From assembly GCA_963718235.1 (NCBI GenBank), contig CAVQYR010000001.1, positions 832,001 through 896,000 of the forward strand: DNA of 64,000 nt. Direction: 5' to 3'. The translations under genes were made by a program, and so were the position numbers. The notes under the pieces are model-generated. The model had not been told where the DNA came from. It ran no database searches and saw only the letters and a list, made by a program, of their open reading frames with translations. Of this stretch, positions 40,052 to 43,056 are shown piece by piece (the first letter of the stretch is position 1; the number at the start of each line of letters is the position of its first letter). Origin of the DNA: an uncultured Actinomycetota bacterium. Lineage in GTDB: Bacteria > Actinomycetota > Actinomycetes > JAHEKZ01.

Positions 40052-42109
40052 ATGACCGTCGCTGACCGACCGGTCGGGATCGCACCGGCTGACCCGGTCC
40101 GGACGGTCCGGCGCGCGGCGACGCCGCTGCCCTTCGGACACCGCCCGGGACTCGACGGCATGCGGGCGGTGGCCGCCCTGCTCGTCGTGATGTTCCACGC
40201 AGGCGTGCCGTTCCTCAACCATGGCTACACGGGTGTCGACGTCTTCTTCGTCCTGTCCGGCTTCTTGATCACGTCGCTGCTCATCCGTGAGATCGCGGTG
40301 CGCCACCGGGTGGACCTCCTCTTCTTCTACGCGCGCCGCGCGCGCCGACTGCTCCCGGCGGCGCTCCTGGTCCTCGTCGCCACCGCGGTGCTGTACCAGC
40401 TCTTGGCGACGCCGCTCGACGTGGCCGAGAACCGCGGCGGGTTCGTGGCGGCCGCGCTGTACGTGTCGAACTGGTTCTTCCTCGCCCGGTCGCAGGACTA
40501 CTTCGCCGAGGACGCCGCGCCGAGCCCGGTACTGCACTACTGGTCGTTGTCGGTGGAGGAGCAGTTCTACATCGTCTGGCCGGTGCTTCTCCTCGTGCTG
40601 TTCCTCATCACGCGTCAGTTCGGAGTCACCCTGCGTGTGGTCGTCGCCGGGTTGGCCTTGGCCGGTCTGGTCTACGCGGGGGTGCTCGCACAGAGCGAGG
40701 CGATGCAGTCCTACCTCGGCACCCTGGCCCGCGCCTACCAGTTGCTGGTCGGCGCGGTGGTGGCCCTGTGGGTCTTCCGTCGTCAGCGTCGGGGCCACGC
40801 GCCGCCGCCCGGGGCCCCCGGGACCTTCGACCGGCCGTGGGGCCAGATGCTCGCGGGAGTCGGCCTGCTGATGGTGCTCGTGGCGGCCAGCCCGTTGCTG
40901 GGCGACCTGACGGCGTACGGTCGGGGGGTGCTGAGCGCCCTGGGCACCGGCGCGTTGATCCTGGGCATGGAGCTCGCTCCGGCCGGAGGGGTCCCTGCGG
41001 CGCTGTCCTGGTCGCCTGCGCGTCGGCTCGGCGACTACTCGTACCCGATGTATCTGTGGCACTGGCCGGTGATCGTGCTCGGCGACCTGGCCGGGTGGCT
41101 GCCGGTGGCGTGGCTGCCGCGCGTCACCGTCGTCCTCGCGGTCACGATCACGCTGGCCGCGGCCACCTGGTGGTGGGTGGAGGTACCGATCCGACGCTTC
41201 TCCCTGGCCGGTCGTACGAACCGTCGCCGGGCCGCTGCCGCCGCGCCAGTCGCCGCAGCCGCTGCGGCCGGGCTGCTGCTCGTGCTCCTCCCGGTCAGCA
41301 GCACGGCGGCGAGCCTGCTCGCCGCCACCGCCGGCGAGCCGCGCCCCGCGCGTGACGCCACCCTCGTCGAGTCGGGCGGCAGCCCGAACCCCGCTGCGCC
41401 CACCGTCCTTCTGGTCGGGGACTCCCACTCGGGGTTCTGGTTCGAGGCCTTCGCTGCCGCAGCGGAGCAGCAGGGCTGGCGGGTGACCAGCGTGCGTCGG
41501 GACGGCTGTGCCTGGCCCGACGTCGACCAGGTACCCCCGAACGGCGGCGCGTCGCCGTGTCCCGACCTGCGCGAGCGGGCGCTCGAGGTCGCGTCCAGGG
41601 AGCAGCCCGACCTGACCGTCCTGGTGACCCGCGCGTTGTTCGACCATCCGCTGCACACTGACCTCGGTGACGTCCAACCGGGTGAGACAGCGTGGCTGGA
41701 CGAGGTGCGGCGAGGGACCGTCGGCTTCCTCGACCAGCTGCAGCAGTTCACGCCGTATGTCGTCCCGTTCGAACCGATCCCGGAGACGGCCGAGTCGATG
41801 AACCGGTGTCTGTCGACCGGCGCTTCAGCGACCAGCTGCTCGCTGCCGGCCATCGACCCTCCGGGAGCTGCGATGGTCGAGGCGTACTGGAGGAGGCTCG
41901 CGGCCCGGCCGGGGGTGGTCACGGTCGACCTCGACGAGCTGGTCTGCCCCGGGGGCACCTGCTCGGCGATGGTCGACGCCATCCCGACGCACCGGGACAG
42001 CCAGCACTTGACCGGCGCCTTCGCCGGGTCGCTCATGCCGGCGGTCGAGCGGCAGCTCGCCGAGCAGGGGGTCGACCTGGCCCGAGCGACCATGACCGAG
42101 CGACGATGA
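40052..42109 (+). CDS. Acyltransferase-3 fused to SGNH domain (OatA/OafA-like O-acyltransferase)
   Basis: LDGMRAVA..LV..FH, GVDVFFVLSGFLIT, RRARRLLP, HYWSLSVEEQFY, SYPMYLWHWP, GDSH and DSQH. Confidence 0.92.
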   Translation: MTVADRPVGIAPADPVRTVRRAATPLPFGHRPGLDGMRAVAALLVVMFHAGVPFLNHGYTGVDVFFVLSGFLITSLLIREIAVRHRVDLLFFYARRARRLLPAALLVLVATAVLYQLLATPLDVAENRGGFVAAALYVSNWFFLARSQDYFAEDAAPSPVLHYWSLSVEEQFYIVWPVLLLVLFLITRQFGVTLRVVVAGLALAGLVYAGVLAQSEAMQSYLGTLARAYQLLVGAVVALWVFRRQRRGHAPPPGAPGTFDRPWGQMLAGVGLLMVLVAASPLLGDLTAYGRGVLSALGTGALILGMELAPAGGVPAALSWSPARRLGDYSYPMYLWHWPVIVLGDLAGWLPVAWLPRVTVVLAVTITLAAATWWWVEVPIRRFSLAGRTNRRRAAAAAPVAAAAAAGLLLVLLPVSSTAASLLAATAGEPRPARDATLVESGGSPNPAAPTVLLVGDSHSGFWFEAFAAAAEQQGWRVTSVRRDGCAWPDVDQVPPNGGASPCPDLRERALEVASREQPDLTVLVTRALFDHPLHTDLGDVQPGETAWLDEVRRGTVGFLDQLQQFTPYVVPFEPIPETAESMNRCLSTGASATSCSLPAIDPPGAAMVEAYWRRLAARPGVVTVDLDELVCPGGTCSAMVDAIPTHRDSQHLTGAFAGSLMPAVERQLAEQGVDLARATMTERR

Positions 42110-42235
42110 CCGAGCGACGATGACCGAGCGACGATGACCGAGCGACGATGACCGAGCGACGATGACCGAGCGACGATGACCGAGCGACGATGACCGAGCG
42201 ACGATGACCGAGCGACGATGACCGAGCGACGATGA
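42092..42235 (+). repeat. Perfect 14-bp tandem repeat ATGACCGAGCGACG x10 (plus terminal ATGA)
   Basis: Units start at 42092 and every 14 nt through 42218; the next ATGA is at 42232. Confidence 0.97.
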
Positions 42236-42246
42236 AGGAGGCAGCG

Positions 42247-43056
42247 ATGGCAGTCGCAGAGCGCGGCGACCCCCTGCGGCGGTGGAGCGACGCGCTCGCG
42301 GACTGGGCGATTCCCGACGAGATCCTGCGCCAGGCCACGTCGTCGCCGTGGCAGCTGCCGGTGGAGCGGTTCGCCGACCGGGCCGACGAAGCGGTTGCCC
42401 ACCCCCGGGGCTGGTCCTACGAGCGGGCAGCGTCCGCGCTTCCGCACGGAGGGTCGGTCCTGGACGTCGGTGCGGGTGCCGGGGCCGGCTCGCTGCCGCT
42501 GGCGGGTCGGGTCGGTCGGCTCACGGCAGTGGACGCGAGTGCGCCGATGCTGCGCGCCTTCGAGCAGCGGGCCGACGTGCTGGGCGTCGAGGCGGCCACC
42601 GTGCACGGCGAGTGGCCCCAGGTCGCGGCGGAGGTCGATGTCCACGACGTCGTGGTCGTCCACCACGTGCTCTACAACGTGTCCGACCTCGAGCCGTTCA
42701 TCTCCGCGTTGACCGACCACGCCCGCGAGCGCGTCGTGGTCGAGATCCCTCCTCGCCACCCGATGACGTGGTCCAACCCCCTGTGGCAGCAGTTCTGGGG
42801 CCTGCGGCGCCCGACCGGGCCCACCGACGACGACCTCATGGCGGTGGTGCGTGCGCTGGGCGTGCGCGACCTCGTGCGCTACCGGTGGCGACGTCGAGAC
42901 ACCGACGCGACGCCGTTGGCCGAGCGGGTGGCGCTCGTGACCGACCGGCTGTGCCTGCCCCAGGAGCGACGCCCCGAGGTCGAGGCCGCCCTGCGGCTGC
43001 TGCCGCCCGTCCAGGAACGCGCCGTCGTCACCCTCGCCTGGACCGGGTCGGCATGA
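42247..43056 (+). CDS. Class I SAM-dependent methyltransferase
   Basis: [29 protein letters not shown] 5 nt before ATG 42247 (alternative in-frame ATG at 42232). Confidence 0.85.

Follow-up and report, generated by a model that had tools for sequence, protein, structure and literature searches.

The stretch of DNA analysed here, referred to throughout as the window, spans 64,000 nucleotides (nt) of an uncultured Actinomycetota bacterium (contig CAVQYR010000001.1 of assembly GCA_963718235.1, forward strand), and the element under study is a 14-bp tandem repeat array situated between an acyltransferase gene and a methyltransferase gene, the latter followed directly by fbiC. The array and the features around it, in window coordinates, are as follows.

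38202–42258, no strand assigned: a 4.06-kb segment holding a histidine kinase and a response regulator on the minus strand and the acyltransferase and the array on the plus strand (blastn synteny, NCBIfam names)
40052–42109, plus strand: AT3 + SGNH (OafA/YrhL-type) acyltransferase (Pfam Acyl_transf_3, E 1.7e-29; SGNH, E 7.1e-27)
42082–42095, plus strand: imperfect first copy of the repeat (13/14 bases), coding for ..R-A-T-M of the acyltransferase; a flanking partial repeat and putative slippage seed
42096–42235, plus strand: ten perfect 14-bp copies in the register CCGAGCGACGATGA, equivalent to ATGACCGAGCGACG from 42092 plus a closing ATGA at 42232–42235 (tandem repeat search and exact counts)
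42106–42235, plus strand: nine ATGA-linked mini open reading frames (mini-ORFs) M-T-E-R-R-stop, each shifted by -1 frame against the preceding one (read from the sequence)
42235–42241, plus strand: AAGGAGG Shine-Dalgarno (SD) sequence of the methyltransferase, 5 nt before ATG 42247
42247–43056, plus strand: class I S-adenosylmethionine (SAM)-dependent methyltransferase (Methyltransf_25, E 4.5e-10), with an alternative in-frame ATG at 42232
43053–45674, plus strand: fbiC, bifunctional FO synthase CofGH (NCBIfam NF006687, 1440 bits vs a cut-off of 1018)

An exact string search located ten perfect units ATGACCGAGCGACG at 42092–42231, with starts at 42092, 42106 and so on to 42218. Tandem Repeats Finder (TRF) returned the array as a row at 42082–42235 with period 14, 11.0 copies, 99% matches and a score of 301, the highest of the 81 TRF rows in the window, the next best scoring 124. 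Read in the register CCGAGCGACGATGA there are 11 copies, copy 1 (42082–42095) with a single mismatch and the other ten perfect, and a direct check confirmed that 42096–42235 is exactly ten times the unit. When up to 2 mismatches were allowed, a two-unit pattern matched 9 times in the 3.17-Mb genome, with 9/9 of the matches inside the array and none on the other strand, and the reversed pattern used as a control gave 0 matches; the array is not a chance feature. Both the exact two-unit pattern and the pattern of the right-hand junction had 0 matches in the metagenome_contigs and genome_contigs collections, from which the window's own record was possibly left out. Contigs from 3 public sequencing runs (2, 3 and 6 records) carry the flanks at 99–100% identity, ending at 42082 or 42094 and resuming at 42291, and leave 42095–42290 uncovered; a fourth run, of raw reads, gave 0 matching reads, and no RNA run was among the 24 listed.

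The acyltransferase ORF (39926–42109) ends ATG ACC GAG CGA CGA TGA inside the first perfect unit, its TGA stop at 42107–42109 falling within the array. Nine further ATGs at 42106–42218 each begin an M-T-E-R-R-stop frame whose TGA overlaps the ATG that follows, giving a -4 stop/start overlap at 10 successive array junctions. The TGA of the last mini-ORF (42233–42235) overlaps ATG 42232, and that codon shares the reading frame of the methyltransferase ATG 42247 (ORF 42232–43056). The preliminary description of the repeat and of its MTERR chain was borne out in every detail by exact search, TRF and the ORFs. It had also proposed that any copy number preserves the chain, and arithmetic on the sequence and its ORFs agrees for copy numbers of at least 1, at which both flanking ORFs and the ATGA chain stay intact; at zero perfect copies the acyltransferase would be fused in frame to the methyltransferase, the array being the only stop that the acyltransferase has. 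A phase-variable switch is not seen here, as no change of copy number at or above 1 shifts a reading frame and no promoter-like site lies in the array to be respaced. A minus-strand gene across the array was considered and rejected: all 3 minus frames are open, but the long minus-strand ORFs are shadows of Pfam-supported plus-strand genes.

The origin of the unit could be traced through acyltransferase homologues sought among 5.8 billion proteins. The closest of these (P0002 and P0003) share 67% identity overall and 65% and 63% over the C-terminal part, and they end ...QGVDLARGTMTD... and ...QGVDLAQGTMLD..., followed by 5–9 poorly conserved residues. At the position of the imperfect copy both keep ..GVDLA(Q/R)GTM(L/T)D.. 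(..GVDLARGTMTD.. and ..GVDLAQGTMLD..), and since the homologues thus end in ..TM(T/L)D.., the imperfect copy together with the ATG ACC of the first perfect unit represents the native codons Arg-Ala-Thr-Met-Thr. On this alignment the array replaced the poorly conserved acyltransferase tail. The TGA within ATGA is not read in the native frame, and a duplication of 14 nt (3n+2) moves the frame by -1, so that the TGA of the next copy becomes an in-frame stop; the first perfect copy therefore ends the acyltransferase and each extra copy becomes a five-codon ORF overlapping the next ATG. The start codon of the methyltransferase had been entertained as the source of the unit, prompted by the 5' end of the methyltransferase in genome G001, and was dropped once the homologue alignment pointed to the acyltransferase tail.

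Synteny with relatives was assessed by blastn, tblastx being too noisy in DNA of 70% GC. A 1.4-kb query around the array found some match in 30 of 41 genomes (the window's own, G000, included), and the good matches start at or beyond 42259, inside the methyltransferase; the array part of the query was unmatched in all 40 relatives. In G001, of the same genus, the cofD-side block (window 35893–38201) and the methyltransferase-fbiC block (42259–44365) stand 42 nt apart, vs 4057 nt in the window, and in G005 733 nt occupy the position of this 4057-nt interval. G003 has the kinase and regulator genes (38225–39940), with 633 nt of other sequence where the window has the acyltransferase; its spacer upstream of the methyltransferase includes an 11-nt match to the unit, too short to carry weight. 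A tblastn search over the loci of 19 relatives found the methyltransferase in 16/19 and the acyltransferase in 0/19. Acyltransferase orthologues are located elsewhere in G002 (54% identity) and in G005 (50%, on the same contig as its methyltransferase and ~87 kb from it), and none was found in G001, a 99% complete genome, at E <= 1e-20. Because the loci of relatives lack the acyltransferase and have kept the methyltransferase-fbiC pair, the acyltransferase is a lineage-specific arrival between cofD and this conserved pair, with the array as its right-hand edge. None of these conclusions depends on the unpublished genome G033. In G001, cofD and methyltransferase-fbiC are divergent neighbours 42 nt apart, and in the window they are split by the 4.06-kb segment; by this separation the F420 genes here have lost an ancestral shared promoter region.

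The array belongs to a wider set of repeats in its genome. Whole-genome TRF gave 544 rows, 117 of them with a period not divisible by three (non-3n); 31 of the non-3n arrays reach 3 or more copies and a period of 7 or more, and the array at 42082–42235 scores highest among these. The gene set for these statistics consists of crude calls based on GC content at third codon positions that cover 75% of the genome, which is a weak tool. Non-3n arrays lie inside predicted genes in 8/31 cases (binomial 9.5e-9 vs the 75% coverage; 3n arrays 60/105), and this avoidance of coding sequence argues that they are real features of the genome and not assembly noise. Nine of the 31 start within 15 nt of a gene stop, vs 1.4 +/- 1.1 under random non-genic placement (maximum 5 in 300 trials), although short spacers alone may account for much of this enrichment; two further stop-anchored arrays were recognised by eye, namely the one at 42082–42235, with the stop 27 nt inside it, and C2:167088. 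The arrays C1:311484 (13 bp x 10.4), C1:1011351 (14 bp x 4.6) and C2:167088 (13 bp x 5.2) are missing at the orthologous junctions of up to four relatives, and in each case the unit stems from the native stop region. TGACC is common in array units, and TGA followed by CC is the commonest stop context among predicted genes ending in TGA (572/1757). As computed from the consensus units, the ATGA/GTGA chain property is present in 3/31 arrays: the array under study, C2:790273 (11 bp x 5.8, chain V-T-D-Q-stop) and C2:41169 (11 bp x 3, chain M-I-N-R-stop). The chain is therefore a recurrent outcome of arithmetic and not a singular design.

Several further observations concern repeats of this genome. 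Non-3n arrays of period 7–17 bp with a gene stop in their first unit (e.g. 13 bp x 10.4, 14 bp x 4.6, 17 bp x 4.9, 13 bp x 5.2 and 11 bp x 5.8) were seen at L044:785-919, L045:752-816, L046 (G000:C1:1671261-1671343), L047:789-855 and L048 (G000:C2:790273-790336); the three that were compared with relatives are confined to this genome. A dispersed element of ~75 bp with inverted ends CCAAGTTGATC ... GATCAACTTGG, which looks like a MITE (miniature inverted-repeat transposable element) or a REP (repetitive extragenic palindrome), has 17 copies in the genome (up to 3 mismatches in a 26-nt core), including G000:C1:339567 and G000:C2:41111, and two small tandem arrays adjoin copies of it. Loss of NucS mismatch repair as a cause of so many arrays was rejected, NucS being present at 138 bits. 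The second strongest array in the window is a 12/24-bp tandem repeat of coding type at 5711–5786 (GGCAACAAGGGG..., 6.3 copies, score 110–124).

As regards translation of the downstream genes, the SD of ATG 42247 matches over seven bases and is ideally spaced, and the alternative ATG 42232 overlaps the stop of the final mini-ORF. Partition-function folding predicts the AAGGAGG to be 0.71–0.86 unpaired at 0, 1, 2, 3, 5, 8, 10, 12, 15 and 20 perfect copies, and the N-termini of the methyltransferases of G001, G003 and G005 fit ATG 42247 in length, not 42232. An own SD that is predicted to be open whatever the copy number argues for little dependence of the methyltransferase on upstream translation. 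The array RNA is predicted to be less structured than 199 of 200 shuffled sequences (z +2.46), and Rfam gave no family above threshold, its single match being at chance level (17.1 bits vs 38). For want of any TA dinucleotide the array cannot contain a TANNNT -10 box; a scan of 39700–43200 found 0 promoter-like sites, and a terminator search found none in the array and one, at chance level, inside the acyltransferase gene (41415–41432). As the array contains neither a promoter-like nor a terminator-like site, transcription of the methyltransferase and fbiC is probably shared with the acyltransferase.

The codon argument of the preliminary description was not upheld. CGA had been taken for a rare Arg codon whose tandem occurrence could make the array sensitive to Arg-tRNA; in the crude gene set it is instead a minor codon, making up 11% of Arg codons, equal to CGT, and CGA-CGA pairs are not avoided, with 263 seen vs 65 expected, an approximately fourfold excess that may be artefactual, arising from the crude gene calls or from repeats rich in CGACGA. 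As CGA is not rare and its tandem pairs are over-represented, sensing of Arg-tRNA by the array has no special footing. According to the abstracts of PMC2490762 and PMC2034473, tRNAs can be sequestered by minigenes of very small size and by codon pairs close to start codons; if this applies here, heavy translation of the chain would be costly and not useful.

Taken together, we consider it likely that the array is a young, lineage-specific tandem repeat of the variable-number type (VNTR), produced by replication slippage between the acyltransferase stop and the ribosome-binding site of the methyltransferase, and that it is neutral. Ten perfect copies beside a flanking 13/14 partial copy are the signature of recent slippage, and the designed-looking mini-ORF chain is most likely incidental, an arithmetic by-product of that slippage. 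The seed would have been native sequence of the acyltransferase tail (...CGA GCG ACC ATG ACC GA...), and a 14-nt (3n+2) unit containing ATG followed by A would, with each added copy, shift the frame by -1 and bring the hidden TGA into frame. The array would be transcribed within an acyltransferase-methyltransferase-fbiC mRNA, on which ribosomes leaving the acyltransferase would terminate at 42107–42109. Some reinitiation at the first ATGA is plausible, and a fraction of ribosomes may hop along the mini-ORFs with losses presumably compounding over ten steps, while the methyltransferase would be translated mainly by fresh initiation at its own AAGGAGG and ATG 42247. Copy number could then drift in 14-nt steps with neither gene damaged, and the array would persist because it is harmless. 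We infer the slippage mechanism, the co-transcription, the near-neutrality and the low contribution of a relay from the features described above.

Several considerations weigh against this explanation. No second strain with the locus was present among the collections scanned, and copy-number polymorphism, the hallmark of a VNTR, is accordingly unsupported. Both neutrality and low relay efficiency are inferred, and the unusually unstructured array predicted by folding would also suit a ribosome track. The methyltransferase-fbiC pair, its ancestral divergent promoter region lost, seemingly relies on read-through from the acyltransferase, so that the junction could matter for F420 synthesis. Finally, the enrichment of stop-anchored arrays (9 vs 1.4) could reflect function and not survivorship.

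The preliminary description had favoured a functional relay of termination and reinitiation, in which ribosomes are passed through the ten ATGA junctions to ATG 42232/42247 and copy number sets coupling or protection from polarity roughly exponentially. Its structural logic follows from the arithmetic: the chain starts at the acyltransferase stop and reaches, without a break, an ATG in the methyltransferase frame. Passages of PMC12548453 give -4 as the most frequent coupling overlap and describe coupling as weakening with distance, and such a relay could therefore bridge the 138 nt involved. The same passages give coupling as efficient at -4 to +3 nt and slight beyond about +30–40 nt. Also in its favour are the open array RNA and the lack of space for a promoter between the inserted acyltransferase and methyltransferase-fbiC (the array is free of TA dinucleotides, and 39700–43200 has 0 promoter-like sites). 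A function in methyltransferase and fbiC expression is nevertheless unlikely. The array is unconserved in the relatives and in both contig collections, its perfect copies imply a recent origin, its ATG comes from a native Met codon and its stop is automatic from a 3n+2 duplication, and two other arrays of the genome have the identical chain property. Moreover, folding predicts an open SD, itself strong and well spaced, at all copy numbers, the N-termini of homologues agree with ATG 42247 and not with the relay end point 42232, ten serial reinitiations would compound their losses, and CGA, at 11% of Arg codons, is not avoided in tandem. Rho loading sites are C-rich and G-poor. The unit, with 5 G and 4 C among its 14 bases, has G above C, unlike such sites, which leaves a role in polarity weak. 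A literature search outside subscription journals returned no paper describing a repeat-borne reinitiation relay; what it brought up were the coupling review PMC12548453 and the papers on TAACTGA arrays (PMC4679880) and Borg repeats (PMC9879509). A bolder form of the idea, that the chain is used and that slippage-prone copy number acts as a heritable, reversible and roughly exponential dial on methyltransferase and FO synthase (and so on F420 supply) per acyltransferase translated, seems quite improbable to us; on that form, the stop-anchored non-3n arrays across the genome could together make up a general class of elements that tune operon junctions. The better-supported reading is the one that the preliminary description had entered as its caveat, namely that the methyltransferase has its own SD and that the array is neutral slippage.

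It is very unlikely that the array is an artefact of assembly, or a real array given the wrong copy number by assembler or read errors. Such an error would be in keeping with the array being known from the window's genome record only, with a best share of sampled words of 0.30 among 24 public runs and no run contig crossing 42095–42290, and with the possibility that the genome (2 contigs, 95% complete) is a metagenome assembly. Artefacts would however be expected to land at random, yet the non-3n arrays avoid predicted genes (8/31 inside vs 75% coding) and sit at stop codons with both flanking ORFs preserved. The 154 bp would be easily spanned by the long reads that a 2-contig assembly implies, and the array provides the only stop of the acyltransferase, which with zero perfect copies would run in frame into the methyltransferase. 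Some other selected role, be it a translational insulator that uncouples the methyltransferase from the newly inserted acyltransferase by shifting the acyltransferase stop 126 nt away from the SD or a tandem platform for an RNA- or DNA-binding regulator, is likewise very unlikely in our judgement. Arrays that include an upstream stop and lie just before a downstream start do recur in the genome, the array RNA is predicted to be open, and a regulator-binding role is proposed for TAACTGA heptamer arrays in passages of PMC4679880. Against this, the unit occurs at one locus where a regulator site would be expected at several, the remaining arrays of the genome have unrelated units, the array is unconserved in relatives and contig collections, and no Rfam family reaches threshold (17.1 bits vs 38). 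Recent and probably neutral slippage from the acyltransferase tail thus remains our preferred account of the array.

With respect to the neighbouring genes, the long acyltransferase ORF is open from GTG 39926, AAAGG precedes ATG 40052, and orthologue alignments begin at residues 41–57 of the long ORF; the protein from ATG 40052 has 685 residues, the same length as the gene call in the protein database, and ATG 40052 is the probable start. A stretch of ~23 nt with GTCCTTGCGAACT lies upstream of the acyltransferase at 39950–39975 and occurs also in G003:C5 (L043), ~40 nt before the methyltransferase start; this stretch is a possible promoter or operator now driving the acyltransferase. Methyltransferase and fbiC are joined by an ATGA, in which the stop of the former overlaps ATG 43053 of the latter, and a WhiB gene also lies downstream of the array. 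On the minus strand upstream are an OmpR-type response regulator, a histidine kinase and cofD (374 bits vs a cut-off of 257; NCBIfam). The placement of a class I methyltransferase directly 5' of fbiC is conserved in the family, with the methyltransferase in 16/19 loci and FbiC adjacent in at least 4 of those listed (L010, L011, L020 and L025).

Among known systems the nearest is the family of mycobacterial interspersed repetitive units (MIRUs), whose units are tens of bases long, about 40–100 bp. Judging from passages of PMC12548453, the ORF within a MIRU is coupled at -4 nt, and this arrangement likely keeps the impact of insertion to a minimum. The array resembles them in having tandem units between co-oriented actinobacterial operon genes, with a unit ORF joined to its neighbour by a -4 (NTGA) overlap; here an ORF overlap of 4 nt, as ATGA, is found at both array ends and between all units. 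As far as those passages describe them, MIRUs also resemble it in that insertion is tolerated with little polar effect and changes of whole units leave the flanking genes intact. They differ in that the MIRU family is dispersed at many loci, whereas the 14-bp unit occupies a single locus and stems from the tail of a local gene, and in that the present unit, far shorter than a MIRU unit, chains ten minimal ORFs. By analogy, the array would work like a miniature MIRU, but its single locus and 14-bp unit place it outside that family.

The intergenic TAACTGA heptamer repeats of Beggiatoaceae, cyanobacteria and Bacteroidetes, as presented in passages of PMC4679880, number ~169 loci per genome, usually lack an SD, show whole-unit insertions and deletions between strains and are proposed as a regulator-binding site. 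They and the array share a non-3n unit whose stops close all three forward frames, an overlap with the upstream stop and an end just before the downstream start, to the extent that those passages cover them; the present unit differs in being unique to one locus, in having a strong SD after the array and in holding a start codon in each copy. The tandem repeats of Borg elements, which are archaeal and extrachromosomal, are likewise perfect, recent, genome-specific and flanked by partial repeats, with A-rich units, and the intergenic ones mostly have non-3n units, often with the first unit within a gene end (passages of PMC9879509). The array matches these repeats as there described in being perfect, recent, genome-specific, partial-flanked, non-3n and placed at a gene end, and differs in its ATGA chaining, of which those passages give no description for Borg repeats. 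With NTGA coupling in general it shares the canonical -4 overlap, at every array junction and at the methyltransferase-fbiC junction (PMC12548453, in the passages on coupling). The cases known from those passages join two real genes through one junction, whereas here there are ten serial junctions, five-codon ORFs of no likely function and a final gene with its own SD.

Should the relay be true, it would be a new and mutationally tunable way of setting expression ratios within an operon, in one that feeds synthesis of the F420 cofactor. The array is in addition a candidate marker for strain typing. A designed-looking chain of overlapping mini-ORFs can arise by arithmetic from a 3n+2 unit containing ATGA, which cautions against inferring function from such chains. 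Overall, the array illustrates the way in which a non-3n tandem duplication may survive: what is duplicated brings its own stop and start, and both neighbours are left intact.

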